Assembly (NCBI GenBank): GCA_032128875.1 | Contig: JAVLKG010000003.1 | Span: 545,008-609,007, forward strand | Direction of reading: 5' to 3' | Source of the DNA: Candidatus Melainabacteria bacterium 17Bon1m | GTDB lineage: Bacteria > Cyanobacteriota > Vampirovibrionia > Obscuribacterales > Obscuribacteraceae | Length of the DNA stretch: 64,000 nucleotides | In this document: positions 3,616 to 60,595 of the stretch, piece after piece | How positions within the stretch are numbered: position 1 is the first letter of the stretch | How the letters are laid out: each line of letters begins with the position of its first letter | Program-made: the position numbers and the translations under genes | Notes under the pieces: generated by a model | Told to the model about the DNA's origin: nothing | Database searches by the model: none | Seen by the model: the letters and a program-made list of their open reading frames with translations, nothing else

Positions 3616-3731
3616 AAGATTAGGAAAATGATCGCGTAGAAAAATCATCGCAGGTAGCCTATTGTTTTTAGGCGCGGGCGCCCGTATTCTAAGCGTCAGC
3701 TCAGCAGCTCATGCACAGAAAACGGCAGCAG

Positions 3732-4307
3732 ATGGCACTTATCAATTACCCGAAGCGTGAAATTGTCTATAAGGTCGTCTATTACGGCACCGGACTTGGT
3801 GGCAAGACTACAAATTTGCGTTATCTGCACGCCAATCTGGACTCTTCTGTCCGGGGTGAGCTTGTGACCGTCGCCACCGAGACGGAGCGCACTCTTTTCT
3901 TCGACTTCATGCCGCTAGATCTCGGAGAAGTCGAGGGGTATAAGGCGCGTTTTGCGCTTTACACAGTCCCTGGCCAAATTGAGTATGGCGAAAGCAGGCG
4001 CATGATTCTTAAAGGCGCCGACGGAATCATCTTTGTCGCAGATTCCAGCGCGGTGCGTCGCCAGGCCAACATCGAAGCTTTGCAGGGAATGATGGATAAC
4101 TTAAAAGAACACAAGCTAAGCCTTACCGGCGTCCCTTGGGTTCTTCAGTACAACAAGCGCGATTTGACCGACGCTTTGCCAATTGAAACGCTTGAGAAGG
4201 ATCTCAATCAGACCAAAGTGCCCTCTTTTGAAGCCGTGGCGACCGAGGGCAAGGCGGTATTCGGGACATTGAAAACCCTCAGCCAAATGGTCGTTCAAAA
4301 ACAATAG
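3732..4307 (+). CDS. mglA: MglA-family small Ras-like GTPase (copy 1, more diverged)
   Basis: [41 protein letters not shown] at 3732 aligns with the start of copy 2. Confidence 0.9.
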   Translation: MALINYPKREIVYKVVYYGTGLGGKTTNLRYLHANLDSSVRGELVTVATETERTLFFDFMPLDLGEVEGYKARFALYTVPGQIEYGESRRMILKGADGIIFVADSSAVRRQANIEALQGMMDNLKEHKLSLTGVPWVLQYNKRDLTDALPIETLEKDLNQTKVPSFEAVATEGKAVFGTLKTLSQMVVQKQ

Positions 4308-4848: not shown

Positions 4849-5211
4849 GACCGTGAATTTTACCACGAAAGGCTTTGCACGCGAAGTACTTAGGCTGTTT
4901 GTAAGCAGTAAGACCGAAAGGAACATTTACACTAAACCACTCCAACGTCGGCCTTGTACGTGGTAGTCTGTTTTTGGGGTTACAGCTTTGGCTGGCGTTG
5001 TCAGGCAAATAAACCTAACCGGGAAATCAAGCAGCCGTTTTTTGACTGTCTTAATTAACTGTGTCCCCCCCTTCCCCCAGATCGAGATCAATTCTCGTAA
5101 GATCACTTCTAATGCTGTCCCAATCGTGGTATCAATTCCTGTTGTCGCCCCACCGAGCGCTTGAAATCCAAGTGCGTCGTGGCGGAACGGCGTTGGGGTA
5201 GGAAGGCAAGG

Positions 5212-5790
5212 ATGGCTTTAGTAAATTACGCGGCACGCGAAATCAATTGCAAAATCGTCTATTACGGCACCGGTCTTGGTGGCAAAACGACGAATCTTAA
5301 GTACATTCACAGCCAATTGGCTCCGACCACCAGAGGCGAGCTGATTTCTTTGGCGACAGAGACTGAAAGAACCTTGTTCTTCGACTTCTTGCCATTGGAC
5401 TTGGGTTCGGTTCAGGGCTTCAAAACCAGATTCTCTCTTTACACAGTTCCTGGTCAGGTTGAATACAACGCATCCAGAAAACTGATTCTGAATGGTGTAG
5501 ACGGCATCATCTTTGTTGCCGACTCTGACGTCATGCGCTCGAAAGACAATGTCGAGTCCCTTCAAAACATGATTGAGAATTTGGCTGAATACAGCCTGAC
5601 GCTCGACAACATTCCGTGGGTTCTCCAGTACAACAAGCGCGACTTGGCAAACGCAATGCCTATCGAGCGTATGGAGAAAGAGCTCAATATTCGTGGCGTC
5701 CCGAGTTTCGAAGCCGTCGCTTCTGAAGGTCTCGGTGTGTTCGCTACCTTGAAGGCGATTTCCAAGCTGATTCTCAACAGACTTCAGTAA
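5212..5790 (+). CDS. mglA: MglA-family small Ras-like GTPase (copy 2, close to Myxococcus MglA)
   Basis: [62 protein letters not shown]. Confidence 0.95.
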
Positions 5791-18606: not shown

Positions 18607-18709
18607 GATATGTGCTCAATGAACGCTATCTCACGCGCACGAAGACGCACATGCTGAATTTGATGCATAATTGTTGCCCTTGATACCAGTTAACCGACTG
18701 CTGAGTTTT

Positions 18710-20044: not shown

Positions 20045-20081
20045 CAATGTGTGTTCCGGTGCGGCAAAGAGGATTGATTAG

Positions 20082-25021: not shown

Positions 25022-25050
25022 GGCTATAACCTCGGGATGCCTGATTTTGA

Positions 25051-29013: not shown

Positions 29014-29229
29014 CCGCAAAACAGAATTTCGAAAAGGTTTCTTGACCCCCACAGGCTCGCATTGCCACCACAGGTAGTGCGAGCCTTTTATTTGTCCATG
29101 GTTCTGGAGCTCGCGTGCGGGCTGTCAAGCATCGACTGGTTAAGTTTAAGTGACGTCATTTATAGTTATTCTCTCCTCAACCTGTGGCACGAACTCTTTG
29201 TGACGCCAATCACCGTGGAGGTTTTTCAA

Positions 29230-30045
29230 ATGCGCGCAAGCCTGGCAATGGTATTCCTGAGCAGCTTTATGTTTCTTGCAGGGAATCCCTCACTAGCGGC
29301 TGATAACGAAGCGGCGACAGCAGCTAGTGTCACAAAGCCGGTTGAAGCGGCAGCTCCTCCGGCGGCTACTTCTCCAACCTCATCGCCTCAGACCGGCTCG
29401 TCTCCTGCGGTGGTGCCGAGCGGATCAGCAACCGATACAGCTGCCACTTCCGCGCCCTCAAGTACGCAAAGTGGAACACCGCCTGTAGCAGAGCCGGCAT
29501 CCGCTGCCGCAGGCGCTGCGGCCCTTGAGCCTCACAAAAGGCCTGTGCCGGATGGCTACGCGGCTGCCGCCGAGCTGTTCAAGGCGAGGAAGTTTGCCCA
29601 GGCTCAAAAGGAATTCGAAGCGATTGTCACCACCGGCACAGCAGATATCAACACTCACCTCTGTCTGGCGCATTGCTATCTCCAGCAAAAGATTTATTCA
29701 AAAGCCGTTAAGGAATTCGACCTGCTCAGCAAGCATGCCAAAAACAGCATGAGTCTGCAAAAGAGTTGCGCCCAAACCGCAACTTCCCTACGCAACGCAA
29801 TGAGAGGAATTTGCCCAGCTAATTGTCTTAAAGGGCACGACCCTCGCTGGACGCTCAAAGCGGGCAATAAAGTTATTCTGGTCCCCCATAACGGCGGTGG
29901 CTACGACACTCTGACCCCTAACGACATCGGTCATTTGATTGTCTATGAACACGGTAATGTCGTAGTCAAAGGTACTTGCCCTGTTTGCGAAGGAACGACC
30001 GAAGTTCCTGTGCTCAAAGACGGCGGACCCATGCCACGCATTTGA
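29230..30045 (+). CDS. Exported P/A/S/T-rich protein with TPR and Cys-motif domain, paralog A
   Basis: GGAGG RBS, signal peptide, low-complexity linker, TPR pair, CPANC...CPVCEG. Confidence 0.8.
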   Translation: MRASLAMVFLSSFMFLAGNPSLAADNEAATAASVTKPVEAAAPPAATSPTSSPQTGSSPAVVPSGSATDTAATSAPSSTQSGTPPVAEPASAAAGAAALEPHKRPVPDGYAAAAELFKARKFAQAQKEFEAIVTTGTADINTHLCLAHCYLQQKIYSKAVKEFDLLSKHAKNSMSLQKSCAQTATSLRNAMRGICPANCLKGHDPRWTLKAGNKVILVPHNGGGYDTLTPNDIGHLIVYEHGNVVVKGTCPVCEGTTEVPVLKDGGPMPRI

Positions 30046-30084
30046 TATTGTCCAAATCGTTTTCAAAGAACAAAGGAGACTGAA

Positions 30085-31017
30085 TTGAAAAGGCAACTTT
30101 TCTCTGTGTTACTTTCTTTTTGTTTTGTCGCCGGGAGCTCCGGTTTGGCAAAGGGGACATCGGAGGGCGCGAAGATAACAACTAAGCCGAAGCTGTTGGT
30201 GCCGACGCTTCCCCCTCCAACGGCTGATTGGCCTGAGGTCCCGCCATCAGCGAGTAGTCCTTCTGGCACTGGTCCAAGCTCTGCTGCAAGCCCAAACCCA
30301 GCTCAGAACCCCTCTGAGCCAGCGGCGACGACAACAACTCCTTCCTCTGAAGCGCCCGCAGCTGCTCCAACCAATGTTTCTCCGCCTGTTGTTTCGCCAA
30401 CGGGTTCGGAATTGCCTTCCAGTTCTAACATTGCTCCGCAAACCGATGCTGCTGCCGTTTCACCTCCGGCAGTCGAACAGTCTCCAGCGCAAATGGAGCC
30501 GCACAAACGGCCAGTCCCGGCTGCCTATGCGGCGGCTGCGGAATTATACAAACAGAAAAAGTTTCCTCAGGCGGCAAAGGCATTTGAAGCGATCATCCAG
30601 TCTGGCGTCGCCAACGTTGATACCCACTTGTCTCTGGCGTATTGCTATCTGCTTCAGCGCCTGTATTCTAAGGCGGTCAAAGAATTTGAATGGGTGGCGA
30701 AGTACGGCAAGAACAGCATGACTTTGCAAAGGCAGTGTGGTCAAACGGCGAGTTCGCTGCGTACATATATGGCCGGCGTCTGCCCTGCGCCATGCCTGAA
30801 AGCGAACGATCCGCGTTGGTTTCTTAAGCCTGACGGAAAGCACTGGATCTCTGTTAGTTATTCTAGAAAAGCGACCTGGATTTTTAGCGAAAATCATATC
30901 GGCGAGTATGTTGCCAACGAAAATGGGATTCCCGTTCTTAAAGGCACTTGCCCCGTATGTGGTGGCACTGGTCGTGTGAAAATATTGAAAGACGGCGATC
31001 CCGCACCGAGGATTTAG
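30085..31017 (+). CDS. Exported P/A/S/T-rich protein with TPR and Cys-motif domain, paralog B
   Basis: AAGGAG RBS, TTG start, EPHKRPVP, TPR pair, CPAPC...CPVCGG. Confidence 0.8.
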   Translation: MKRQLFSVLLSFCFVAGSSGLAKGTSEGAKITTKPKLLVPTLPPPTADWPEVPPSASSPSGTGPSSAASPNPAQNPSEPAATTTTPSSEAPAAAPTNVSPPVVSPTGSELPSSSNIAPQTDAAAVSPPAVEQSPAQMEPHKRPVPAAYAAAAELYKQKKFPQAAKAFEAIIQSGVANVDTHLSLAYCYLLQRLYSKAVKEFEWVAKYGKNSMTLQRQCGQTASSLRTYMAGVCPAPCLKANDPRWFLKPDGKHWISVSYSRKATWIFSENHIGEYVANENGIPVLKGTCPVCGGTGRVKILKDGDPAPRI

Positions 31018-33029: not shown

Positions 33030-34631
33030 CTAGTCTAGCGGTCCTAAAACAGACTCCACTTTCTCGAGCAATTGGTTGTTCTCGATCAGTTTTTCTGCCT
33101 TATCTATATCGATGTGCACTTCTCTGTCTTCATCCATGTGCGGTATGTTTTCGCGTACAAGTTTGTATGCCGCATCAACACCGCGCCCTGGTGCGAGCCC
33201 GATCGACTGTTGGTCGCATGTTTCGTGAGTGATGGCGTCTCCGCAATTGCCAATCCGGAAGTCGATGCCTTGACACGCGCAGACGAGTTCGATCGCGAGC
33301 GATTTGCGAACGTTTTCCAAAATAGTGCGCGCTTTGCGTGCTGCAATAGAGCCCATTGAGACGTGGTCTTCCTGGTTTGCGTTGGTCGTAATGGAATCAA
33401 CGCTGGCCGGGTGAGCGAGTACTTTGTTTTCAGAAACGAGCGCAGCAGAGGTGTACTGCGAAATCATCAATCCTGAATTGAGACCGCCCTTGTGCGTGAG
33501 GAATGGCGGCAGTCCGTCCGACAACGCAGGGTTAAGCAAACGTTCGACGCGACGCTCGGAGATATTCGCGAGTTCTGCGATGGCAATCGCCATGTAATCC
33601 ATTGCCAGCGCAAGCGGCTGTCCATGGAAGTTTCCACCGGAAAGCGCGTAGCCATCGAACACGAGCGGATTGTCTGTCGCCGAGTTGATTTCTATTTCCA
33701 AAACCTGCCGCACATGCTCGAATGCCTGGCGCGAAGCGCCATGGACTTGCGGCATGCAGCGCAGCGAATATGCGTCTTGAACACGTGTACAGCCGGTGTG
33801 GCTTTTGATGAGTTCGCTCTCGGCGAGCAGTCTGCGCAAATTGGCTGCTGCTTTCGCTTGGCCGCGATGAGGGCGGACTTGCTGGATTACGTCTGCGAAA
33901 GGTTTTTCTGACCCGAGATGCGCTTCCAGAGACATTGCGCCGATGATATCGGCAACTTTTGCCAGTCTTTCCGCTTGGAGCAGGGTGAGGGTTCCGACAG
34001 CCGACATCATTTGGGTGCCGTTAATGAGGGCTAGTCCTTCCTTTGCAGAAAGTTCGATAGCGGTCAATTTAGCTTTCTTAAGTGCGTCGGCGCCCGACAT
34101 GCGCTTTCCTTCGAAAATGGCTTCGCCCTCACCGATGAGGACAAGAGCTAAATGCGACAGGGGCGCAAGGTCTCCCGACGCTCCGAGTGAACCTTTTTCC
34201 GGAACAATCGGATGAACGCCTCGATTGAGCATGTCCAGCAAGAGGTCGACGACCTCGATTCGGATTCCAGAATATCCCTTGGCGAGCGCGTTTGCCCGCA
34301 AAAGCATGATGGCGCGGACAGTCGGCTCGTCGAAAGACGGCCCGACGCCGGCGGCGTGGCTCAGAAGGAGGTTGCGCTGCAGTTGCGACGCGTCCTCTTT
34401 CTTGATGACTACATCCTTAAATTTGCCAAAGCCGGTTGTGATGCCATAAACCACAGCACCTTCGTGGAGAAACTTCTCGACGACTGCGCGGCTCTTGGAA
34501 AGCTGCTCTGTTGCCATCGCTGAAAGCTTAACAGTGGCAGTGCCGCGCGCGACTCGCTCGACGTCCTCCAGGGTCAGTCTGTGACCATCTATCTGCAGGG
34601 TGGAGGAGGATTTTGTTGTTGTTGTGACCAT
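33030..34631 (-). CDS. hutH: Histidine ammonia-lyase
   Basis: YGITTGFG, LLLSH (HAL specificity), MIO motif GASGDLAPL, QDAYSLRC, NQEDHVSMG. Confidence 0.95.
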   Translation of the reverse strand: MVTTTTKSSSTLQIDGHRLTLEDVERVARGTATVKLSAMATEQLSKSRAVVEKFLHEGAVVYGITTGFGKFKDVVIKKEDASQLQRNLLLSHAAGVGPSFDEPTVRAIMLLRANALAKGYSGIRIEVVDLLLDMLNRGVHPIVPEKGSLGASGDLAPLSHLALVLIGEGEAIFEGKRMSGADALKKAKLTAIELSAKEGLALINGTQMMSAVGTLTLLQAERLAKVADIIGAMSLEAHLGSEKPFADVIQQVRPHRGQAKAAANLRRLLAESELIKSHTGCTRVQDAYSLRCMPQVHGASRQAFEHVRQVLEIEINSATDNPLVFDGYALSGGNFHGQPLALAMDYMAIAIAELANISERRVERLLNPALSDGLPPFLTHKGGLNSGLMISQYTSAALVSENKVLAHPASVDSITTNANQEDHVSMGSIAARKARTILENVRKSLAIELVCACQGIDFRIGNCGDAITHETCDQQSIGLAPGRGVDAAYKLVRENIPHMDEDREVHIDIDKAEKLIENNQLLEKVESVLGPLD

Positions 34632-35048: not shown

Positions 35049-36794
35049 GTGAAAAAGCAAGGTATGACCAGGTCAAACGCCAGTAAATCAAAGGGGAGAA
35101 TGTCTTCGCGCGTCTCTGCTTTGGCGTTTGTGGCTTTGAGCGTTTTTTTAATGGCTCCAGCTTCCTTCGCTGTGGCAGACAATGACGGGAATCTGCTCAA
35201 GCTGGAAGAGAAATTTTTCCAACATACCTATCCGAAAGAGAGTATCGATGCGCGCTTAGACCGTATCGAGAAGATGGTTTTTGGTGAGGCGAAGGACGGC
35301 GATGACGCCGCCCGCTTGTCTGCTCTCGTCCAGGCCGTGCCCAACCTAAATAGTGTTTCTGACTCCGCACCAGCACAAACTGCCAGAAGCGGTGGTTCAT
35401 CTTCAGGCGGCTCGTCAGGTGGAAGCTCAGGTGGCGGACGGCAACCAGCCTCCACACAAGTAGCTGAAGAAGAAGAGTCCGAACCAGCGCCCATCGGGAA
35501 TTACCCAGCGGTTGACGCGATTGAGCGGAAGGCTTTTAACGGGAAAACATACAGCCAAGAACCAGTAAATCAGCGTTTGGCACGCCTCGAAACAAAGTAT
35601 TTCGGTAAGCCATCGAGTAGCACCGACCTGACTGACCGGACCGACAGACTAAAGGCACAGTCTGGAATCGACATTACTAAGAACGCTCCTTTGAATGCCG
35701 ACTGGGCTGACGAGGACGATGACGAGCCTACAAATATTGCGCCACCACAGCCGGTGGCGCGTCGCAATGCAGACAAAGAGTCTTTCAGTGGAAGAAATCT
35801 CGCTGATGACTTCCGCAAGCAAGGATTGATTCCTAAGACCAGCATGGGCGGAAGCGGCATGTATGGCGGCATGGGAAGCAGCGGCACGACAGGCAGTCGA
35901 ATGGGTGCGGGTTCGGGATCGTATGGGGGTGGCTCATACGGTGGTGGCTCATATGGTGGGTCGTCCAGCGGCTCGTATGGAATGGGCAGCGGCGCCGGTA
36001 CTTATGGTGGTCGTTCTACGCCTGCACCGCGTGCAAGACCTCCAATCACCTCGCAAGATTTTGAAGATGATGACGACGATGAGTTGCCACCTCCGAGAAC
36101 TGCGATGGCTTCACCTCGGACTGCACCTGACATTCGCACATCTACTCCACGCGCGCAGGGCATGGGCCTGAACTCTCAAGTCACGCTCATGGAAAACGAA
36201 GTTTTCAACAAGACCTTCCCGAAGGATCCTCTGCCCACGCGCTTACATAGACTGGAACAGTCTCTTTTCCCTGCGGAAAAACCATGGACTGACAAATCAT
36301 TGCCTGACCGCGTCAATCGTTTGGCAAGCGTAATTCAAGTCTCTCCTGGCGGCAGCGCCGGGTCATCACAGCGAGTCGCCCAAAGTCCGCAGCCAGCGCC
36401 GAGTTACAACGACGATGACGGCTACCCGCCGACAGCGCCTAGCATGAGACGCAAGAGTGGCGGACTCGGTAAGATTATCAATTCAATCGGAAACATGATT
36501 GGCGGAGGCTTTGTAGGCGGTTATCCGATGCAGTCCGGCAGCGTGGTCACGGATCCGCGTACTGGTCTTTTACTGGACACGGTGACTGGCAACCTCATAG
36601 ACCCAGCCACCGGCATGGTTGTGCGGCAGTCTGCTCCGAGATATGGCACCGGATATGGTAGCGGTGTCGGCACGTTTGGAAGTGGATTTTCCACAGGTGG
36701 TTTTGGAATCGGAACAGGCGGTGTTCGATTCGGCGGCGGCGGCATGGGAATGCCGATGGGCGGCTATGGCTTCGGTGGGGGCATGTGGCCTTAA
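35049..36794 (+). CDS. Exported protein with three helical repeat modules and Gly-rich linkers
   Basis: Signal peptide; recurring E...F...[YF]..[ED]....RL.R[LI]E...F module; start could be 35049-35100. Confidence 0.85.
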   Translation: MKKQGMTRSNASKSKGRMSSRVSALAFVALSVFLMAPASFAVADNDGNLLKLEEKFFQHTYPKESIDARLDRIEKMVFGEAKDGDDAARLSALVQAVPNLNSVSDSAPAQTARSGGSSSGGSSGGSSGGGRQPASTQVAEEEESEPAPIGNYPAVDAIERKAFNGKTYSQEPVNQRLARLETKYFGKPSSSTDLTDRTDRLKAQSGIDITKNAPLNADWADEDDDEPTNIAPPQPVARRNADKESFSGRNLADDFRKQGLIPKTSMGGSGMYGGMGSSGTTGSRMGAGSGSYGGGSYGGGSYGGSSSGSYGMGSGAGTYGGRSTPAPRARPPITSQDFEDDDDDELPPPRTAMASPRTAPDIRTSTPRAQGMGLNSQVTLMENEVFNKTFPKDPLPTRLHRLEQSLFPAEKPWTDKSLPDRVNRLASVIQVSPGGSAGSSQRVAQSPQPAPSYNDDDGYPPTAPSMRRKSGGLGKIINSIGNMIGGGFVGGYPMQSGSVVTDPRTGLLLDTVTGNLIDPATGMVVRQSAPRYGTGYGSGVGTFGSGFSTGGFGIGTGGVRFGGGGMGMPMGGYGFGGGMWP

Positions 36795-36820: not shown

Positions 36821-37720
36821 GTGATTCTCGTTCTTGGCGGTTCTGGTTTGCTTGGAAGCGCTATCTTGAGGCACTTGCATCGGCAGAGATATCCGGCAAG
36901 AGTGTTGACCCGCGGAATGGGGGATTGGAGAAGTTCCAATATCCCCAATTTGAAACAGCAGGGTACCGAAGTTGTCGTCGGCGAAATGACCGACCCCGCT
37001 GTTCTTGCTAGAGCGATAAGTGGTTGCACTGCGGTAATTCATGCGGGAGGCAGCTTCTTCCAATCAAATGCGCAAACGATGAAATCAGAGCATCTCGATG
37101 TAGTCGGTGAACTTGCGCGCATTGCAGAGTCGGGCGGCGTCCAGCGATTTATTCATGTGAGCTGCTTGGGTGCATCCGAACATTCATCCAGCACTATGAT
37201 GCAATACAAATGGGAAAGCGAACAAGTAATCAAAGACACTCGCTTCTACTGGACGATTGTGCGTCCTTCTTACTTCTTCGGAACATCTTTTCCTTTTCTC
37301 AATGCTTTGTTGCCTGTGCTTAAGCTCAAGCCGGTGATACCGATACCAGGAGCAGGGCTTTGTGAATTAGAGCCGGTCTTTGTTGACGACGTGGCAAACG
37401 TCATCGTGCAAAGTCTTTACAACCGGGGCTCAGTAAGCAAAACCTATGAAATCGGCGGACCCGTCACCTACACGCTGCTCGAATTTATTGAATTGGTTAA
37501 GGAGTACATGAAAATCAAGACCGCGATCATGCATATTCCGACAGACAGCGCTGACAAGACCGCGAAAGTTTTTGGCAAGATCGTCAAGAACGTTCACACA
37601 GATTTGATCGGATTGATGTCCGTAGATTCGATATGCAAAAACGAAGAACAGGAGCTGCCTGTCGAATTGTCAGGAATGACTCTTGAAGAGCATCTAGGGA
37701 CAATTATTCAAAATCTTTAG
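36821..37720 (+). CDS. NAD(P)-binding atypical SDR (NDUFA9-like/epimerase)
   Basis: VLGGSGLLG, RFIHVSCLG, WTIVRPS, PVFVDDVA. Confidence 0.88.
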   Translation: MILVLGGSGLLGSAILRHLHRQRYPARVLTRGMGDWRSSNIPNLKQQGTEVVVGEMTDPAVLARAISGCTAVIHAGGSFFQSNAQTMKSEHLDVVGELARIAESGGVQRFIHVSCLGASEHSSSTMMQYKWESEQVIKDTRFYWTIVRPSYFFGTSFPFLNALLPVLKLKPVIPIPGAGLCELEPVFVDDVANVIVQSLYNRGSVSKTYEIGGPVTYTLLEFIELVKEYMKIKTAIMHIPTDSADKTAKVFGKIVKNVHTDLIGLMSVDSICKNEEQELPVELSGMTLEEHLGTIIQNL

Positions 37721-38193: not shown

Positions 38194-38862
38194 TTACTTC
38201 AAATAAGATTTTGACAGGGAGACGCTCGGCGTCTCCTTTGTTTTTTCTTCTTTCTCGACGTACTGCTTTAGCTGTTTGACGATTTCATTTTGAACGAACT
38301 TGAGAAAGAAGGCCACCATAGACGGTGGCACCATGGCGCCTGCGTCAACGTGCAAAGTGTAGGTCAACTTTGTCTTGCCGCCGCCTTGTGCAGCGAGTTC
38401 CCACGAGCCATCAACGTGCTTGAAATTGCCGTCGAGTTGTTTCCAGTTGATGCGATGTGGGCTGTCGGCGATGTTTGTAACAGTGTGCTGGACCGCGTTT
38501 TTAACAAACATCTGCGGCTTTAGGTACGTTTCTACGTAGATTAGGTCACCATCACGCTTGATGATTTCAGAGGTCTTTATGCGTTTAAATATCCGTGGGT
38601 AATTTTCGAACTTGACTAGTGCGTTCCAAACATTCGTCGGCGTCGAGGCGATCATAATGTCGACTGCCGACTCCGCCATCCCTTTGGGCAGCTTCTTACC
38701 TGGTTCATAGACCGGAATTTGCTCGTTTGTTACAGTTGTTTCGTCAGCTTTGGTTTTCTGCTTACCGAATGAAGCGGGAGCACATATAGGCGAAGACAAA
38801 AGCAAGGCAGCACAGAGGCTTACGCCAAGCCATGAGGTGAGAAGGGCTCGCTTTATTTTCAC
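38194..38862 (-). CDS. Exported SRPBCC/cyclase-dehydrase family protein
   Basis: VWNALVKFENYP, GNFKHVDGSWEL, TKLTYTL. Confidence 0.85.
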   Translation of the reverse strand: MKIKRALLTSWLGVSLCAALLLSSPICAPASFGKQKTKADETTVTNEQIPVYEPGKKLPKGMAESAVDIMIASTPTNVWNALVKFENYPRIFKRIKTSEIIKRDGDLIYVETYLKPQMFVKNAVQHTVTNIADSPHRINWKQLDGNFKHVDGSWELAAQGGGKTKLTYTLHVDAGAMVPPSMVAFFLKFVQNEIVKQLKQYVEKEEKTKETPSVSLSKSYLK

Positions 38863-43221: not shown

Positions 43222-43298
<77 letters not shown>

Positions 43299-43356
43299 AA
43301 TTTTCACTATCGAGATAAACAAGAAAAGCTTTGGCACTACATATGGTGCAGGGCAA

Positions 43357-43671
43357 TTAGTGATTTTGTTTGGGCTTTTGTCTTTTTGAATGCGTGCTGT
43401 GCGCGATTCGTTTGTGGGATGCTTCAGCTTGGCTGGCGTAAACTCGCGGCGCTACGTGCTCTCGGTAGGGCTGCGACGTTGGTTGAAACCAAACCAGATA
43501 AAGGCCGATACCAAGGCAAGTGACGAAAACAGCTGTTCCTAGAAATTGCGTTGAGATGTGGCCGACGTCGAAGTAGCTGAATTGAAATCTATTGAAGACG
43601 ACGAAGAAGAATGCTCCAAGCCCTACAAGCAGAAAGATAAATCCAAAATCGCCCAACGGTGTTTCTCCCAA
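43357..43671 (-). CDS. Small hypothetical membrane protein
   Basis: Two hydrophobic segments and a basic tail; start uncertain. Confidence 0.45.
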   Translation of the reverse strand: MGETPLGDFGFIFLLVGLGAFFFVVFNRFQFSYFDVGHISTQFLGTAVFVTCLGIGLYLVWFQPTSQPYREHVAPRVYASQAEASHKRIAHSTHSKRQKPKQNH

Positions 43672-43798: not shown

Positions 43799-44457
43799 TT
43801 AGCTTGTGACTTCAATGTTCTTATATGGATCGAAGTCAGTTCGCCAGACGGTGGTGTTGAAAATATCCACCGCTGCATCCATGTTTTCCGCAAAGCTTTC
43901 TATTGGTGCACTATAGAACAGGATGTGAATCATTTCTCCATTGCCAAAAACGTCCATGCAGTACTCGATCGTCCTGCGCCCGATATCGGAATTTTCAAAT
44001 TCGAATATTACTGTTTTAAATCCTTTGAAATTTGTTGATCTAATGCCAAGACAAAAACCCTCATCACTTTGCACCGCATGTGGCGCTGCTTCCATGATCA
44101 CATCATCCATCGTTGAAATTCTGGACAACATTCCGCTTTCCGCTGCAGGTTCCTTCGCTTCGCTGCTAGAGGCACGCATAGTTACGTCTTTGTCAAACAG
44201 ATGTTTTTTTCGCTGCAGCTCTTCGTGTCCCTTCAAAATTTCTCCGGAAAAGTATATTCCGACGGAAACCTTTGAGTTGGGGTCTGACAGTGTGATCGAA
44301 GTTTTTAAGGGCATGTCTGATGTATAAACTTGGTGAACATGCTTCCAGTCCAATTGGTAGGGACCGTCATAGTCGCGAGAGCGCCATTAGTCTTAAGGAC
44401 GCCATCTTTGAGTACTAGCGGTTCTGAGGATCCTTGGTTATTGCCCAGGAGTGCCAT
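43799..44457 (-). pseudogene. Frameshifted paralog of 44692-45354
   Basis: ATG 44457 gives MALLGNN...KTNGAL...VPTNW and stops at 44305-44307; the homologous remainder (GIYFSG, HAVQS, RTIEYC, WRTDFDP) is in another frame; span is 659 nt. Confidence 0.8.
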
Positions 44458-44483
44458 CGAATTTCACCTCTACAAGCGCTTGC

Positions 44484-44660
44484 TCAGTCAATAACGTCGA
44501 GTGGAAGTGCTGGGTCAAAATCTTTGCGCCATTCACTTGATTGTTTCGCAGACCAACCATTCGGGACGTTCATTTTCGTCAGGGCACCGTTCGTTTTTAG
44601 CAAGCCACCCTTCAGTACAAGCTCTTCCGATGTTAGATTTCTATGGTCCAATAGTGCCAT
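44484..44660 (-). pseudogene. Internally deleted 58-aa paralog of 44692-45354
   Basis: N-terminal MALLD...TNGAL...VPNGWSAKQSS fused in frame to C-terminal EWRKDFDP; own GAGG RBS. Confidence 0.8.
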
Positions 44661-44691
44661 TGAAGTTTTCCTCAAACCTAGCGGACGCAGC

Positions 44692-45354
44692 TTATTCAAC
44701 CACCTCGAGCGGAACGAACGGATCGAAATCTTGGCGCCATACGCTCGATTGGAAAGCGCTTACTGCAATGTCCATAAACTGTTTGAATTTTTCGATAGCT
44801 GCATGGTAATAGAGAATATAGACAACGCGTCCATTACCGAGAACATCAATACAATATTCTATTGTCCTTGATGAATCGCTGTCATTTTCGAATTCGTACA
44901 TGACCGACCTGAGTCCATTGAAATCTGTTGATTTTATTGCGCGGCAGTATTTTTCTTCACTTTGAACTGCGTGCCTTCCTGCTGAAAGAATATAGAAAAG
45001 CATCTTGGTGTCATTGGCAAGTTCGCCTTCTCCACCAATTAACTGAGTAGCCTCTGGTGTTCCTGCTGTCATTGTGATCTCTCGATCAAAAAGATTTTCT
45101 TTACGAATCTCTCCATCAATTTCATCATCCACGATTCCCGAAAAATAGATCCCAATCGAAAAATCGAGTCCGTCGGCATCTTTTAGGTCGATCAAGGTTT
45201 CTGGAGGAAAGCTTGGCACGATTTTATTTGAGGATTGACTAGCAGACCAACCACTGGGAACGTCCATGCTTACGAGCGCCCCATTGGTTTGCAGAACGCC
45301 GTTCTTTAATGCCACTTGCTTGGTAGTTGGATTTTTATTGTCCAGTAGTGCCAT
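44692..45354 (-). CDS. Acidic partner protein of the giant ORF (putative immunity protein or chaperone; possibly PsbP/DcrB-like fold)
   Basis: Overlaps the 3' end of the 1727-aa ORF by 20 nt; VPSGW motif; C-terminal ILYY...AFQSSVW. Confidence 0.75.
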   Translation of the reverse strand: MALLDNKNPTTKQVALKNGVLQTNGALVSMDVPSGWSASQSSNKIVPSFPPETLIDLKDADGLDFSIGIYFSGIVDDEIDGEIRKENLFDREITMTAGTPEATQLIGGEGELANDTKMLFYILSAGRHAVQSEEKYCRAIKSTDFNGLRSVMYEFENDSDSSRTIEYCIDVLGNGRVVYILYYHAAIEKFKQFMDIAVSAFQSSVWRQDFDPFVPLEVVE

Positions 45355-48300
45355 CGAACGATTCCTCTAGTAAACAATCAAAGAGTGCTTCGAGATCAAG
45401 GTCAAGTTCGTAGCGCCCTTCGCTGTTGAAAATATTGTATTTACCGTTTAGCTGATTATACCTTCCGAGTATGACGTGACCTCCGCCTTCTCCGTGAGGA
45501 TTCAGCTTTTTTGCATCAATTGCAATGGCTGCCGCTCCTCGCTTTTCTTCATAGCGTCTCTGTAATATCTTTGCAAGATGCTCCTTATCACTGACAAACG
45601 TCTGGGTTCTGCTCAGATGTTCAATGAGCTCTGAATCAACATCTTGTGGTGCTGGACCGATTAAAACAAATGTTTCTTCTGGCAGTCCATGACCTGCTGC
45701 TTTGTTGTACATCTGCAGCAGATGTTCGCTTCCAATGTGAGGTCTATCGTCTGGAAGGATTTTCTGCGGAGATAGGCCTGAGTTTTTATTCGTGTTATCA
45801 ACTTGGAATGGCAACCATTCATCGCTATGTTTGTAACAAAGTTGATGGCTCTCAGTCGTACCGAAGAATGCTACTTTGCCAGCCGCAAATTCTTTAACAA
45901 CTGCGCCATCCGTGTTTGGCGATACAATCAAAAGTCCTTTTGGAGTTTCCTTGACGTAGATGCTTCTCTCAACACAGTTCCAATGAGCGTTTATGAGCAT
46001 TGTTTGCATAGCCTTTTCCGTGGGCCTCCGAAAGTGTGGTATATGCAAGTCCTCAGTTGTCTTCCACCTATCGAGTTTGTTACTGTATGCCAGCGTTTCT
46101 AAGTCCGTAGCGTGTGCGCCAAAACTTGATGGCTTCAATCTGGTGCCGTCAGTAGTGACAAAAGTGTCGTAGCAAGAAATATCCTTTGCTATCTGCGCAT
46201 AGCGGTGAGGCGCATTGAATGCAAGTTGTTTTTGCACTACGGTTGCATTACACGTTTGATTCATTCCTTGGTGGATCATTTCGGGATTCGCAAGTTCGAA
46301 TAGCGTCATTTCTCCGCGGTGCCGAAGAGCCTCACCTTTCGGCAGGACATCTAGGTCCAGATCCAGTCCCTCCCTGATCGGACGAAAGAAGTGGGTGACT
46401 TCACGCAATGTTTTTGCAGTTTCCTTGGGATTATTGATTCTTTCCTGCAGTTGGTTTGTATGTTGGATTAAGCGTGTCAGGTTTTCCTTTGGCATGGTGT
46501 CTTTAGCACTTTCAAACAGCGCTCTTTTCGCGAAGTGTAGATTAGCGTGATCTATGGTTTTGCCGAGCAGTTTTCCTGCTGAGCGAAACTCTGCGTATTT
46601 AAGAAGGGCAACAGCAAAGTCGGAAGTAGACTTGATTCCTAATTCGTCGAGCTTGAATTTTTCCGGTTCAAGAACGGCTTCCTTTGTCAGTTCTGTTCCG
46701 GTTTCAAGAGTTGAGGTTTCGCCCGCCTTGTAGAGTTCGTTACGGATTTTTTGCTGCACATTTGATGAGAGTCGTTTGCTGGTTTCCTCTTTGATGAGTC
46801 CAACGAGATAGTTGACTTCATTCGGGTCAGCGCCTTCTTTTACAAGCGACTTAGCGAGTTTATGAACCTCATGTTCAAACTCTTTGGAGCCGAATGCGCA
46901 ATGCGTGAGAGACATCTCCGACATGCCCTTCTGCATGATTTCACGTGCGTCATCTCTGATAAGCGAAACAGTCTTCGCCGTGCCAATCCGCTCGCAAACA
47001 GCGTCCGTTGTTGCTGCTGCAACTTTCGCATCTAATTTCAACAACTTGCTCAGCGGGATTACTTTGTCAGCAAATCCAAACGAAATGTCCATAAAACCTG
47101 AGCCCGCGATCTTGAGGGACTGCGATTCGTCGAAATCACTGCCCATCATTGCGCGTGTCATCTCGAGTTTTACGCCTGCTCCGACAACTCCTGCCGACGC
47201 GAGTATTGCGGCAGTCGCCGGAGGATCTGCAATTGAAAGAGTGACACCCAACAGCATTGTTGTAGCATTAGCGACGGCTTCTGCAGATTCGCGTTTTGTG
47301 GTTACGAAATTGGCTTTCGCAACAAAATAATTTTCTAGTGCAGCTTCAAGTTCTTCTCTCGTTTTCGGCTCAAGTTTGGCAATAGCTTCTTTGTTTTCCG
47401 CGTATACTTTCGCGATTCTAGCGTGTGCGTCTACGGCTCCCTTCATCATCAGCGAATCCGCGGCGCCGTCTTGTTTTACCAGATCCTTTTGAAGGGAAAT
47501 AATTTTTTGTCCCATCGTCAAAGGCGCGTATAGTTCCACTAACTTGCGCCTATCTGCACCACTTGCTGCGTGCAAAAGATCTGCGTTCATAGTTGAGTGG
47601 TACTTGAGATAAGCTTGCTCTATGGCTTTGCGCTCTTTGGGTTTCAAACTGCCAAGCTTTTCAATCACACCTGAAAGTGGTTCGTCAAAGCCGACAACTG
47701 CTGCGCGAATGCGCATCGCAGAGGTAATATCCTTTGGGCTATTCAATTGAAGAACTTCGCGGGCGAGCTCGGCTTGTTCTTTTGATTTGAAGATCTCATT
47801 CTGCAAATACTGCGCTTCTGGCGCTTTCGACATCAACTTCTGAACTTCATCTTTTGAAAGATGCGTCAAATCGTCGATTGAGATTTTCGATTCTCTCCAA
47901 AGTGAAGCTTTGAGGTCTAGTGGCACCGTGCCAGCGTCGAAAGTCTTCTTTATATACTCTTCGTACTGAGCTTCGCGAATCTGCTGACCTTCCGCGTCGT
48001 ACTGCGGACCGCGTCCAGTGTCATCGCAGAAGCGCTTTACCATCTCCTCCAATGATTTGCGCACTTCTTTGTCTTCATCTGATTTTGGATTTTTGAGGAG
48101 GTCGTGGCTCAGACTCGCTAGCGCGATTTCGAGTTTTCGCGCACGTGCTGCATTGCTTCCTTCGTGCAGGTTTGCGAGAAGTGCTTCGCTAATCGGATCT
48201 GCTTTTTCATTGCTTTTGAGTATCTGCTGCAACTTGCGCTTTGCGACAAGCAATTCATCACCTTGCAGTTCTGCAGAAATCAATTTGTCGATTGATTTCT

Positions 48301-50518
48301 GATCCTTCTTATATGCTTCTTTTTCTGCCGGGGTCAATTGCAAAATTCGATCGAGTTTTGATAGCCGGCAATTTTTCTGGCTCATTGCGTTCCAAGAGTC
48401 TTGAGCTACTTCCTCGCGGAAGTACTCCTCGATGGAACGCTTGCCTTTGTCTTTCGACTTTTCGTATGTAAGGCTGTCCTTCGCTTTGTCGCCGACTTTC
48501 TCCGTGAGCATGTGCATTATTTGTGCACGCTCCCCATCGTTCAAAAAGTCTTTCAGATCATCGTTGAGTTTTGCCAGGTGGCTCGGATTCTCTCGCAGCG
48601 ATTGCCAATTTTCTTCGGAAATGTTCTCTACGACTTTCTTCATTCCATTCAAATCATTTTTCTGAAAATTGCCAAAGAAGCCATCGCCGTGCAGTTTTCG
48701 CAAGTCAGAGTAGATTTCCGGCGTACCGGTCATCTTTCTCTTCAGCAAGTCATATTGAGTCTTGTCGTAAAGAGTTGCGGTTTTTAAGGCTTGATCGACT
48801 GTTCGAAAATAGTTGATCAAATCCTTTTGATCTTCTGTTGGATGTTTGAGTTTTGCCAGCGCCTCTCCTTTGGTAAACGCTGCCCGATCGTCTGGATTGG
48901 CGAATTCTACAAGACGCGCCACTTCTTCCTTGTTGGCGCCGAGCCAACCGTACCAACTTGTGTTTTGGTGCAAGCCGGTGACCAACGACTCGTTGCCTCG
49001 TGCAATCAAATCTGATACCGCTTCGCCTTGAAGAGAATATTTTTGAATTACTTCCTTCGCTTCTTTCGATTTTGCGAATTCTTGTCTTGCTTCAGGAGCG
49101 GAAAGTCGCATTGCGTCTTTGAACAAATCAAAGTTGTTGTGGTCGATGGCAAGCCGCACCATCTTAGTGACTGCTTCGGGCTCCTGTGCCCATGCAGGAT
49201 TTTCCAGCATGATCTTAAGTGCTGCGCGAGTTTCGGCACCCACATTGGCATCTGTCGTTAGTTGCTGAAAAAGTTCTCTATGTCCAACCGCCAATTCTGC
49301 AATCGCTTTGGCTGGCATCATCGCAATTGTTTGACGCATTGCGCGCTCTACGTTTGCTACTTGCGGATCGCGAAGTCCGATCTTTTCAGCCAGCTGCGGC
49401 AGGCCTATTGTTCCTGTCGCGACATTGAAGGCAGCCGTTACTCCAGCGCCTTTTTGTTTTAACTCCTTCAGTTTGATCAGGTCATTCTGCAAATCGCCAG
49501 CCCAATCTGTGACGCCTTGGCGCCGCTGGAAAAGCGCTTCAATCTCTTGGACATCGGAGGGGTGGTCTCCGCCTTTCCAGCGCAACTCGCTGAAAAATGT
49601 GGTTTGACTCTGGCTTTCACTGGCGAAAGCCTCTGCAACTTGCTGTCGTTTTTCAAGCGGCAATCCTTCAATAACATCCTTTAGCTGCTTGAAGTCGACA
49701 TGTTCGCCAAATGGCAAACCGAACGGACCCGGCACATGAAGCGCCTTTTCGAGGAGTTGCACATTTGTCAAAGTCTCTTCGTCATATGTTTTTACTTCAC
49801 CGACGACGAGCATCGTTTGAGAAGGCACTTCCTCCGGCGTGTCTTTCGTTTCGCTCGAAGGAGTTTTGGTTTCACTGCCAGAACCATCCCCGCTGTTGCT
49901 GTTAGTCGCTCTCTTTTCGCGCAGACCCTTTAACTCGGGCTCGAGCTGTTCTGCAATCGACTCTCTGAGCGCTTTGTCGGCAGATTGCTTCATGTCGGGC
50001 GGCAGCAATGACTCTTTCAGATTCTTGATCATCGCCATCGCGTGCTCGGCAAAACCTTGAGTCTTGCCTTGTTTGCGCTCTTCGTCGCGCAGTGCTTTTA
50101 GCTCTTGCGTAATTACTTTGGGAACATCGCCGGTGAAGCTAATTATGTTTCGCCCTTTCCATAAAAGCGACTCAAGCTCTTTATCGTGTTTGGAGTGAGG
50201 AAGGTGTTGCAGTTCTTTCAAATCGGCCAAGTCACGACCGAAATGCATCTGTGCGCTGTTGCCCAACCAACGGACGAGCTCTGTGCGAGTTTTCTCGTCG
50301 GTAATTTTGTTTAGTTTGTTCAGCCCCTCGACTATGTCTCTGGCAATCGGGTCCGACTTGCTCCTGTCCAGAAGCTCTTGCAGACGCATGGGTTGCTTAC
50401 CGTTGGCAGCTTCGCTCGCACTCTTGTGAGATTCAAGGGCTTCGGACGCGGCAGCACGAGGATTACGCTCAGCATCCTCGGAACCCCTAGACCCTTGCTT
50501 CTCAGGCTTATCGACCAC
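45335..50518 (-). CDS. Giant effector/toxin-like protein: annexin-like repeats, hydrophobic hairpin, C-terminal papain-like domain
   Basis: 1727-aa ORF; QGMNQTC...GGHV...IFNSEG; no signal peptide. The ORF is solid; the functional call is inferred. Confidence 0.7.
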   Translation of the reverse strand: MVDKPEKQGSRGSEDAERNPRAAASEALESHKSASEAANGKQPMRLQELLDRSKSDPIARDIVEGLNKLNKITDEKTRTELVRWLGNSAQMHFGRDLADLKELQHLPHSKHDKELESLLWKGRNIISFTGDVPKVITQELKALRDEERKQGKTQGFAEHAMAMIKNLKESLLPPDMKQSADKALRESIAEQLEPELKGLREKRATNSNSGDGSGSETKTPSSETKDTPEEVPSQTMLVVGEVKTYDEETLTNVQLLEKALHVPGPFGLPFGEHVDFKQLKDVIEGLPLEKRQQVAEAFASESQSQTTFFSELRWKGGDHPSDVQEIEALFQRRQGVTDWAGDLQNDLIKLKELKQKGAGVTAAFNVATGTIGLPQLAEKIGLRDPQVANVERAMRQTIAMMPAKAIAELAVGHRELFQQLTTDANVGAETRAALKIMLENPAWAQEPEAVTKMVRLAIDHNNFDLFKDAMRLSAPEARQEFAKSKEAKEVIQKYSLQGEAVSDLIARGNESLVTGLHQNTSWYGWLGANKEEVARLVEFANPDDRAAFTKGEALAKLKHPTEDQKDLINYFRTVDQALKTATLYDKTQYDLLKRKMTGTPEIYSDLRKLHGDGFFGNFQKNDLNGMKKVVENISEENWQSLRENPSHLAKLNDDLKDFLNDGERAQIMHMLTEKVGDKAKDSLTYEKSKDKGKRSIEEYFREEVAQDSWNAMSQKNCRLSKLDRILQLTPAEKEAYKKDQKSIDKLISAELQGDELLVAKRKLQQILKSNEKADPISEALLANLHEGSNAARARKLEIALASLSHDLLKNPKSDEDKEVRKSLEEMVKRFCDDTGRGPQYDAEGQQIREAQYEEYIKKTFDAGTVPLDLKASLWRESKISIDDLTHLSKDEVQKLMSKAPEAQYLQNEIFKSKEQAELAREVLQLNSPKDITSAMRIRAAVVGFDEPLSGVIEKLGSLKPKERKAIEQAYLKYHSTMNADLLHAASGADRRKLVELYAPLTMGQKIISLQKDLVKQDGAADSLMMKGAVDAHARIAKVYAENKEAIAKLEPKTREELEAALENYFVAKANFVTTKRESAEAVANATTMLLGVTLSIADPPATAAILASAGVVGAGVKLEMTRAMMGSDFDESQSLKIAGSGFMDISFGFADKVIPLSKLLKLDAKVAAATTDAVCERIGTAKTVSLIRDDAREIMQKGMSEMSLTHCAFGSKEFEHEVHKLAKSLVKEGADPNEVNYLVGLIKEETSKRLSSNVQQKIRNELYKAGETSTLETGTELTKEAVLEPEKFKLDELGIKSTSDFAVALLKYAEFRSAGKLLGKTIDHANLHFAKRALFESAKDTMPKENLTRLIQHTNQLQERINNPKETAKTLREVTHFFRPIREGLDLDLDVLPKGEALRHRGEMTLFELANPEMIHQGMNQTCNATVVQKQLAFNAPHRYAQIAKDISCYDTFVTTDGTRLKPSSFGAHATDLETLAYSNKLDRWKTTEDLHIPHFRRPTEKAMQTMLINAHWNCVERSIYVKETPKGLLIVSPNTDGAVVKEFAAGKVAFFGTTESHQLCYKHSDEWLPFQVDNTNKNSGLSPQKILPDDRPHIGSEHLLQMYNKAAGHGLPEETFVLIGPAPQDVDSELIEHLSRTQTFVSDKEHLAKILQRRYEEKRGAAAIAIDAKKLNPHGEGGGHVILGRYNQLNGKYNIFNSEGRYELDLDLEALFDCLLEESFDGTTGQ

Positions 50519-59887: not shown

Positions 59888-60595
59888 TTATGGCTCGTAT
59901 GTTCGTGGATAAATCAGCGAGTCGCGCAGAATTTCGCTAAGTGAGCGAGGCAACTTATTTGGAAGATGCTGCTTTCCAGAACCTTCCTTGTTGTTTAAAA
60001 ACTCACTATTTCTTGGTCCGATGTTGATTACACCGTCTTTGATAATTACCGGTGGTAGGTTTGAACTGTTCTCGCTTGGCGTATTTGCGCGCTTCCGCGG
60101 CATCGTCGGAATGTCGCTAAGACCTGAGCCACTGCCTATTCCATTTGCGATGGTATCTGCAATTGTTCGTCCTACAATGACGCCAGCCTCGTAGCCGCTG
60201 GAGTGACTTCTTCCTGCAGCGCTGGCTCCTTCGATCGCCGCTTTTCCTGCAGCGCTGGCTCCTTCGATCGCCGCTTTTCCTGCAGCGCTGGCTCCTTCGA
60301 TGGCTGCTTTTCCTGCGGCGCTAGCTCCTTCGATGGCTGCTTTTCCTGTAGCGCTGGCTCCTTCGATGGCAGATCTGCGCGCTGTAGCTCCTGCTCCAGA
60401 CGCAATGGCACCGCCAATAATGGAGCCCGCGATGGCTCCACCCGCGCTGCTCTCTTGCGCAACAACTTGCCTGCTCGCGTTCAACATAATATCGAGTGCT
60501 TGATTGGCCAGCTTGTGGTCTAAATCAGCTGTTTTTCCAGCAGCGCTGTTAATTTCAGTACTACTGCCGGGGTGTTCAAATTGCCTATGGCTCAC
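59888..60595 (-). CDS. Hypothetical protein with 11-aa tandem repeats
   Basis: GGAG RBS, GTG start; (AIEGASAAGKA) about five times. Confidence 0.7.
   Translation of the reverse strand: MSHRQFEHPGSSTEINSAAGKTADLDHKLANQALDIMLNASRQVVAQESSAGGAIAGSIIGGAIASGAGATARRSAIEGASATGKAAIEGASAAGKAAIEGASAAGKAAIEGASAAGKAAIEGASAAGRSHSSGYEAGVIVGRTIADTIANGIGSGSGLSDIPTMPRKRANTPSENSSNLPPVIIKDGVINIGPRNSEFLNNKEGSGKQHLPNKLPRSLSEILRDSLIYPRTYEP
60211..60370. repeat. 33-bp coding tandem repeat, about 4.8 copies
   Basis: Unit TTCCTGCAGCGCTGGCTCCTTCGATCGCCGCTT; variation is mostly synonymous in the - strand ORF. Confidence 0.95.

Follow-up and report, generated by a model that had tools for sequence, protein, structure and literature searches.

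A locus in Candidatus Melainabacteria bacterium 17Bon1m pairs a giant protein of 1727 amino acids (aa), P0001, with an acidic 220-aa partner, P0002, and we consider it probable, at roughly 60%, that it is a polymorphic toxin-immunity locus of this Obscuribacterales bacterium, made up of a carrier, an exchangeable papain-like tail and an inhibitor with a PsbP fold. The locus lies in a stretch of 64,000 nucleotides (nt; contig JAVLKG010000003.1, positions 545,008 to 609,007), here called the window. The evidence is computational and consists of the anatomy of the locus, a cassette mosaic, the co-variation of tail and partner, a predicted fold and predicted binding. In the proposed mechanism, residues 1-1378 of P0001, including a conserved hydrophobic hairpin, would form a conserved carrier, and residues 1379-1727 would form an exchangeable cysteine peptidase module of clan CA (papain-like) type. 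The PsbP/Mog1-fold partner would bind over the Gln/Cys/His site of this module and around a hypervariable loop, which would keep the producer safe. New tail-plus-partner cassettes would enter by homologous recombination, with one crossover in the conserved body and the other either at the conserved junction (toxin tail, ribosome-binding site and partner start) or at the conserved partner ends; each arrival would shift the older partner gene downstream, where decay would follow. We infer that the module would be toxic and the partner protective, that the protein would leave the cell and that the hairpin would aid membrane crossing.

P0001 has a hydrophilic N-terminus followed by a long, largely conserved body; it also has a hydrophobic hairpin in its interior and a C-terminal module that is predicted to be papain-like (Table 1). 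The module carries the motifs QGMNQTC (with Cys1423), GGHV (with His1681) and IFNSEG (with Asn1698). The 3' end of the gene overlaps that of P0002 by 20 nt (45335-45354), with the partner ATG lying inside the larger open reading frame (ORF), and P0002 is predicted from this overlap to be translationally coupled to P0001. The array holds three copies of a 35-nt junction repeat (45335-45369, 44641-44675 and 44438-44472), the latter two being 80% and 71% identical to the reference copy. On the coding strand, each repeat consists of the final ~12 codons of the big gene, including GAGG, followed by 9 nt and the partner ATG. Because the repeat includes the last dozen codons of the big gene, every orphan partner is preceded by a toxin-tail stub. 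The array has decayed through one internal deletion and one frameshift. Copy 2 runs from an ATG at 44660 to a stop at 44484 and fuses family residues 1-42 in frame to residues ~199-220, with ~155 codons gone, while copy 3 spans 44457 to 43799 and changes frame within ~44310-44350. An earlier interpretation made from the letters of the window (the sequence-only reading) had described this layout, and its observations hold: the 1727-aa ORF with no signal peptide, its hairpin and its three motifs are in place, the 20-nt overlap with a 220-aa acidic gene (isoelectric point, pI, 4.49) is present, two further partner copies, each with its own GAGG, are decaying, and a tRNA-Arg gene lies adjacent, ~500 nt past the end of the array. 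The interpretation of the locus as toxin and immunity, which that reading had put forward, is supported by the present analysis.

Both proteins belong to families. Twelve homologues of P0001 were found at E<=0.001 among 7999 scored candidates (1634-1778 aa, 49-89% identity, 92-100% coverage), one of them named as from a Candidatus Obscuribacterales metagenome-assembled genome (MAG), and the partner family has 21 further members of 199-221 aa that are 41-80% identical to P0002. Since 12 full-length homologues of the giant protein and 21 of the partner exist, the locus is beyond chance. No family in Pfam, NCBIfam or PADLOC was assigned to P0001-P0003 at E<=1; the low-grade noise in the scans of these proteins with Pfam, NCBIfam, PADLOC and PHROGs consisted of a rhamnose dehydrogenase at E 0.1 and Mu Gam at E 0.0046, with 0 stretches. 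PDB sequences, searched with P0001 alone, with its family profile and with a profile of the tail, yielded only annexin VI (E 0.013), DNA polymerase IV (E 0.3) and one further match at E 0.55.

Comparison with the nearest genome, L001, revealed that the locus is a mosaic. The DNA of the two genomes is collinear at ~91% identity from 56000 to 46385 and again from 43768 to 38002. The similarity breaks at 46385, which corresponds to residue ~1378 of P0001, and past the break it nearly vanishes, except for a 116-nt stretch around the Cys motif that is 71.6% identical. The sole strong match inside the gap, at 81%, is between the cognate partner gene of the window and the second partner gene of L001. 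At the amino-acid level, the bodies are 94% identical, the tails 49% and the cognate partners 46%, while the cognate partner of the window and the second partner of L001 share 81%. By the Nei-Gojobori method, the synonymous and nonsynonymous divergences (dS and dN) between window and L001 were 0.52 and 0.042 for the body; for the tail, the synonymous difference was 0.83, which is saturated, with a dN of 0.45. The window's cognate partner and the second partner of L001 differed by a dS of 1.0 and a dN of 0.13, and recA by a dS of 0.28. Because synonymous sites are saturated in the tail against a dS of 0.52 in the body, the tail is best read as a distant allele that was imported. Fast evolution of the tail in situ was considered and rejected in view of the sharp breakpoint and the saturation at synonymous sites. 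The three closest metagenomic homologues, P0004-P0006, show a similar step: in 100-residue bins they are 91-100% identical to P0001 over residues 1 to 1300-1400 and fall to 42-54% over residues 1501-1700 (1401-1700 in P0006). Chimerism of the MAGs was likewise rejected as the cause of the mosaic, since the same identity step appears in several independent assemblies. The L001 locus looks like a window-type locus with a newly recombined tail-plus-partner cassette, in which the old partner has been shifted one place downstream; this second partner is intact and has a toxin-tail stub before it.

In line with cassette exchange, tails and partners co-vary. Across the 36 pairs formed by 9 genomes, the identity of the tails and that of the cognate partners were correlated with a Spearman coefficient of 0.72 and a Mantel r of 0.76, and the partial Mantel coefficient controlling for the body was 0.77; in neither Mantel test did any of 20000 permutations reach as high a value. 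The corresponding Mantel values were 0.28 for body versus partner and 0.11 for body versus tail. The orphan partners of the window also match alleles that are cognate or present elsewhere. The nearest allele to copy 2 is P0025, at 87% over 39 aa at the N-terminal end and 87.5% over 16 aa at the C-terminal end, and the nearest to copy 3 is the cognate partner of the locus L005, at 57-59%.

The tail has the features of a papain-like enzyme. Among 13 family sequences, Gln1417, Cys1423, His1599 and His1681 are invariant, and at least 90% carry Asn1698. The family tails were also aligned with nine distant relatives of shorter length, seven of which align through the C-terminal part. The motif DQGxxxTCN is kept in five of the nine and two more have the Cys in a changed motif; of the remaining two, one lacks the Gln only and the other, P0045, lacks both Gln and Cys. 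Among the seven aligned through the C-terminal part, the Cys is found in six, G-H-[VW] in six and N-x-[WH]-G in five. An AlphaFold2 model of the last 348 aa, built from a 20-row alignment, is an alpha+beta domain with a predicted local distance difference test (pLDDT) score of 78.8 and a predicted template modelling (pTM) score of 0.81. In the model, helix 44-56 begins with Cys1423, and the strands 301-309 and 314-319 hold His1681 and Asn1698, respectively; this is the clan CA layout of Gln before Cys, Cys at a helix N-terminus, and His and Asn on successive strands. In papain itself the order is Gln-x5-Cys...His...Asn-Ser-Trp-Gly, a Trp follows the catalytic Asn in papain-type enzymes, and the N-S-W-G-like motif after the Asn of the tail resembles papain's own.

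When the tail model was compared with PDB structures by Foldseek, the top eight matches were all to the phytochelatin synthase-like protein Alr0975 of Nostoc (E 0.027-0.086, probability 0.98-1.0). These matches are weak, with template modelling (TM) scores of 0.19-0.31 over ~107 columns, and were followed by CcbD, CtaG and AvrRpt2. Judged on the predicted model, papain-like enzymes are the only coherent Foldseek matches of the tail. This agrees with the papain fold that the sequence-only reading had expected in the last ~330 aa, at the weak scores just given (best E 0.027). An Atlas feature named 'Peptidase C39-like' matched the tail at 0.94, and among viral models Foldseek gave 0 matches at E<=0.001, with an 'AvrRpt2' phage protein at rank 26 (probability 0.66). 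Collectively, the assignment of the tail as a predicted papain-like enzyme is well supported by motif and topology and weakly by the global fold score.

The partner could be modelled with high scores (pLDDT 91.4, pTM 0.88) and has a predicted PsbP/Mog1 fold. Foldseek matched it to PsbP chains at E 7.5e-4 and 8.8e-4 and, more weakly, to EagT6 in complex with the Tse6 N-terminus (6xrf_H, probability 0.98, E 0.017), to PA0094 (1tu1, probability 0.92) and to the immunity protein Tsi3 (3wa5_B, probability 0.85). Because EagT6 and Tsi3 both match, the fold cannot choose between a chaperone and an immunity protein. The complex of tail and partner was predicted with a score of 0.82 (median of 0.82, 0.85 and 0.79), against 0.01 for the best of three controls, so that the interaction with the 220-aa protein that the earlier reading had proposed is also seen in the models. 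Of 157 solved complexes, 116 reach the mark used for this score, as do 2 of 215 mismatched pairs; these counts apply roughly here because our own alignments were used. At least 86% of contacts were common to the runs, and the pLDDT of the partner was at least 87. On the tail, the predicted interface comprises model residues 38, 40 and 42-45 (Gln1417 and Cys1423), residues 296-303 (His1681) and loop 198-220, the part of the tail that varies most, for which the single-chain model shows disorder. The partner is thus predicted to cover the active site of the tail. Interface positions were more variable than the rest, both in the partner (1.57 versus 1.18 bits, P value 0.002) and in the tail (1.57 versus 1.22 bits, P value 0.008).

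The fold also raises a different role for the partner, that of an Eag-like chaperone or adaptor that shields the hairpin or readies the giant protein for a secretion machine such as a T6SS (type VI secretion system). Genes of PsbP/MOG1-like type beside T6SS toxin genes are described as likely adaptors in parts of Zhang et al. 2012 (PMC3482391), passages of PMC12419801 describe them as adaptors too and call the fold 'diagnostic' of T6SS, and Eag/DUF1795 chaperones are described in a portion of PMC12881460. The matches to EagT6 and PA0094 and the presence of a hydrophobic hairpin in P0001 fit such a role. However, the partner's co-variation is with the tail (r 0.76) rather than the body (0.28), partners differ by up to 60% whereas the hairpin hardly varies at all, and the predicted interface covers the catalytic Gln/Cys/His. 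The partner gene is downstream and overlapping and leaves orphan copies, like immunity genes; neither Pfam DUF1795 in the partner nor PAAR in P0001 was detected at E<=1; and an immunity protein, Tsi3, stands among the fold matches as well. We therefore regard the chaperone role as quite improbable.

The partner family has, in addition, an invariant set of residues of its own, consisting of His128, Glu134, Cys137, Glu166-Tyr167-Cys168 and Asp170 (Table 1), which partly adjoins the predicted interface (P0002 residues 129-134). The invariant His/Cys/Glu/Asp set looks like a metal site or a disulfide.

To return to the giant protein, the hairpin is its sole hydrophobic stretch (~1079-1120 by the Kyte-Doolittle scale with a 19-residue window and a cutoff of >1.2, the windows above the cutoff starting at 1079-1103). 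It consists of two Ala/Gly-rich segments flanking an invariant S-I-A-D-P-P-A turn; the residues from S1095 to A1101, like many beside them, do not vary among the 13 sequences, so the hairpin is nearly invariant. We suggest, tentatively and as something we hold to be rather unlikely, that the body and its hairpin form a self-contained delivery scaffold that would take the toxin out of the producer and across the target membrane without the known secretion-linked domains. With Atlas, the best score for the body was 0.78, below the chance line. The likeness of P0001 to annexins is marginal (annexin VI, E 0.013, residues 876-996), and clear annexin-type repeats in the body were considered and dropped, the best off-diagonal score of a sliding scan with the family hidden Markov model being ~7 bits.

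More distant relatives were found through the tail. An exhaustive search with residues 1330-1727 returned 25 proteins at E<=0.001, of which 5 were at <=1e-10 and 3 at <=1e-30; when longer proteins were searched by words with the tail alignment, the 12 family members came back again, with no named distant relative beside them. Of the tail-search proteins, 22 were reported by phmmer, and five (P0040, P0060, P0050, P0045 and P0042) also share parts of the body; in four of these five, P0060, P0050, P0042 and P0045, the body region shared with P0001 spans the hairpin. Pfam was run on 22 of the 24 tail-search proteins outside the full-length family (P0039 and P0042, >5000 aa, were left out) and gave FHA in five, weak Annexin matches in two, an RHS repeat in one (P0052), DUF3106 in one and no family in 14; the Annexin-positive proteins are P0040 and P0050, the latter having both FHA and Annexin. 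P0040 and P0045 have the body and the tail's first half in common with P0001, lack the Gln and Cys and end before the His strand; they are probably variants of this architecture without catalytic activity.

The annexin signals bear on another possible role, in which P0001 would be an effector against a eukaryotic host or prey cell, the acidic partner would be a secretion chaperone and the tail would have diversified in an arms race against that host. The weak fold matches of the tail include papain-like effectors such as AvrRpt2, the partner is acidic (pI 4.49), annexin-like signals occur in P0001 (annexin VI, E 0.013) and in P0040 and P0050 (Pfam), and Vampirovibrio, of the same class, is described as predatory in part of PMC4451040. 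Those annexin signals, however, are below or at threshold, a chaperone needs neither to co-vary with the catalytic site nor to cover it, the orphan partner copies would be without a role, and no gene of a type III or type IV secretion system was seen in the window. This role is the least probable of those considered and would come as a surprise.

The locus occupies a single fixed site in the core genome, between a sigma-70 gene and tRNA-Arg/Crp/recA. A genome scan matched 73 stretches, of which 10 encode relatives; these form 9 loci, all in MAGs of Melainabacteria/Obscuribacterales. One locus, L007, is a 2.5-kb fragment that ends before the 3' end of the gene, and the other eight reach it. In all eight, big gene and partner gene overlap by 17-20 nt, and the order of big gene, partner, tRNA-Arg(CCG), Crp and recA is kept. 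The neighbours are ordinary chromosomal genes, namely recA, AddB/AddA and those for a Crp-type regulator and a sigma-70 factor. As the tRNA-Arg is a fixed neighbour in 8/8 loci, it is no mark of integration, and a tRNA-linked island was rejected on the grounds of this conserved synteny.

Several results weigh against a polymorphic toxin-immunity locus. With respect to the tail, Foldseek against PDB gave 0 matches at E<=0.001 and profile searches of PDB sequences gave no match. P0001 also has Glu where the family has Trp (IFNSEG versus the consensus IFNSWG, residues 1696-1701); L005 has Gly and L006 Asn at this position, and because Glu, Gly and Asn occur there, the Trp after the catalytic Asn is not fixed in the family. 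With respect to the partner, Eag chaperones too have the PsbP/Mog1 fold, and the higher variability of the interface may come partly from surface exposure alone. With respect to cassette turnover, no orphan toxin piece longer than ~12 codons was found in the window or in the 9 loci, and the window's two orphan partners, both of which read as broken genes, are on that basis not kept as protection. All 12 protein homologues and all 8 loci have the same tail family, with no swaps to unrelated toxin domains. The expectation in the sequence-only reading of a conserved N-terminus with variable C-termini was thus borne out in part: a divergent tail moves with its partner, but the variants are alleles of one family and not unrelated toxin domains.

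The remaining objections concern export. No signal peptide and no hydrophobic segment comparable to the hairpin was found at the N-terminus of P0001. As the earlier reading had noted for RHS, haemagglutinin, PAAR, LXG and RTX, P0001 shows no known trafficking domain (these, MuF etc.) in Pfam, NCBIfam or PADLOC scans at E<=1. Scanning of the 36 larger ORFs of the window brought up no recognisable secretion-system gene, and FHA domains, which are of cytoplasmic type, occur in five of the 22 scanned tail-search proteins. Export of P0001 is therefore unsupported, given that it has no signal peptide or known trafficking domain and that no secretion gene was recognised. Of the earlier suggestion that the export route may be new, what stands is that none of the known routes was recognised. 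These observations would suit a pair whose action is confined to the cell interior, a toxin-antitoxin or defence-type system of giant size in which the body senses infection or stress, the tail is the effector and the partner its inhibitor; diversification would then be driven by phage or other intracellular conflict and not by attack between strains. The lack of an export signal or secretion domain, the fixed core-genome position, the signalling-type FHA domains of the relatives and the decay of both orphan partners in the window all accord with this. On the other hand, no PADLOC defence model was matched at E<=1, and L001 retains an intact second partner. The displaced partner is of the type cognate to another strain (81%), which is the pattern of exported polymorphic toxins as set out in sections of PMC3482391, and a conserved internal hairpin would suit membrane insertion better than sensing. 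We consider action confined to the cell unlikely, and favor the polymorphic toxin-immunity locus.

Table 1. Coordinates of features in the window
Feature	Coordinates	Strand	Description
Giant protein gene P0001	45335..50518	-	1727 aa, GTG start
Hydrophobic helical hairpin of P0001	47171..47278	-	residues 1081-1116
Exchangeable C-terminal module of P0001	45338..46384	-	residues 1379-1727, predicted papain-like cysteine peptidase domain
Codon of Gln1417	46268..46270	-	
Codon of Cys1423	46250..46252	-	
Codon of His1681	45476..45478	-	
Codon of Asn1698	45425..45427	-	
IFNSEG motif	45416..45433	-	residues 1696-1701
Cognate partner gene P0002	44692..45354	-	220 aa, pI 4.49
Invariant residue set of P0002	44845..44973	-	His128 to Asp170
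Junction repeat copy 1	45335..45369	-	last toxin codons, GAGG, 9 nt, partner ATG
Orphan partner copy 2 with junction repeat (44641-44675)	44484..44675	-	in-frame remnant
Orphan partner copy 3 with junction repeat (44438-44472)	43799..44472	-	full length, frameshifted
104-aa ORF	43357..43671	-	two hydrophobic segments
tRNA-Arg(CCG)	43224..43299	+	convergent with the array, ~500 nt beyond its end; fixed downstream boundary
Small Ras/Arf-like GTPase ORF	3711..4307	+	Pfam Arf, E ~1e-7
Small Ras/Arf-like GTPase ORF	5161..5790	+	Pfam Arf, E ~1e-7
Aromatic amino acid lyase ORF	33030..34631	-	Pfam Lyase_aromatic, E 3.5e-206
NmrA-like reductase	36821..37720		near the lyase
Polyketide-cyclase/START-like protein	38194..38862		near the lyase

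Among the other features of the window, a 104-aa ORF separates the partner array from the tRNA. Of the loci that include downstream DNA, only those of the two closest genomes, L001 and L002, keep it (74% in each), and its sole PHROG match, to a family of unknown function, is weak (E 0.002); the ORF may encode a small membrane protein, or be filler from cassette turnover. Rfam matched the tRNA alone in the locus, and a scan for promoters and terminators found sites no commoner than in shuffled sequences (7 versus 7.4 and 13 versus 10.5). Nine sizeable window ORFs (up to 748 aa) have no Pfam family at the cutoffs applied, and an unrecognised secretion component could be among them; they lie within 9623-10585, 18671-21389, 24581-27297, 29062-31017, 35049-36794 and 59888-60595. 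Further away, two small GTPase ORFs stand close together, and an aromatic amino acid lyase is found near a polyketide-cyclase/START-like protein and an NmrA-like reductase (Table 1).

Polymorphic toxins with C-terminal toxin/immunity cassettes and orphan modules, among them Rhs and CdiA, are described in passages of Zhang et al. 2012 (PMC3482391), which also list papain-like toxin clades including Tox-PLC39 and Tox-PL1 and mention annexin domains as accessory parts of some toxins. Like these systems, the window locus has a conserved body, a sharply divergent C-terminal module and an immunity-type gene directly downstream; its tail and partner appear to be replaced together by recombination, and displaced partners remain downstream. 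Unlike them, P0001 has no recognised trafficking domain, RHS or haemagglutinin repeats or processing peptidase, the alleles of the family belong to one tail family, the orphans retain ~12 toxin codons and not toxin fragments, and the locus is fixed, single-copy and core in every genome in which it was found. It also differs from contact-dependent inhibition systems (CdiB/CdiA/CdiI) and Rhs, as Pfam detects no haemagglutinin or RHS in P0001 and no CdiB or VgrG/PAAR context in the neighbours.

Similar comparisons can be made for each of the two proteins. The tail shares with Tox-PLC39/Tox-PL1 and clan CA the order Gln-x5-Cys...His...Asn, the predicted Cys at a helix start and the predicted His and Asn on successive strands. 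In contrast to clan CA peptidases, it has no Pfam family at E<=1 and no PDB profile match, its Cys and His are 258 residues apart, and it has a large inserted beta region and a hypervariable loop. P0002 resembles EagT6 and Tsi3 in its predicted PsbP/Mog1 fold and in being a small protein encoded beside a toxin gene. It differs from Eag/DUF1795 proteins in that it has no match to DUF1795 or any other Pfam family, its gene is downstream and overlapping and not upstream, and the catalytic module, not a transmembrane segment, is what it co-varies with and would, by prediction, cap; its invariant His128, Cys137, Glu166-Tyr-Cys168 and Asp170 set further separates it from PsbP/Mog1/DUF1795 proteins. 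New here are the tail family, the partner family and the unrecognised carrier, whereas the layout of a polymorphic toxin-immunity locus is already known.

Interbacterial toxin systems in Melainabacteria are almost unstudied, and in the open-access literature that was searched we found no description of a polymorphic toxin or similar system in Melainabacteria or Obscuribacter. The toxin family and inhibitor family described here are named in no curated library. With one fixed locus, sharp breakpoints and matched alleles of tail and partner, the system is a clean natural experiment in cassette exchange. The locus is also evidence that a PsbP/Mog1 fold beside a toxin gene may mean something other than a T6SS chaperone, which bears on genome annotation rules in use, such as those given in part of PMC12419801. 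If the protein is exported, its mechanism could reveal a new delivery route. Should the body and hairpin prove to be a delivery scaffold, P0001 and its homologues would represent a new trafficking class of polymorphic toxins, found in the non-photosynthetic sister lineage of cyanobacteria and neutralised by a PsbP-fold immunity protein, and the distant relatives that have the same body and tail, up to ~6000 residues long, would make up a wider, unnamed superfamily of carriers.

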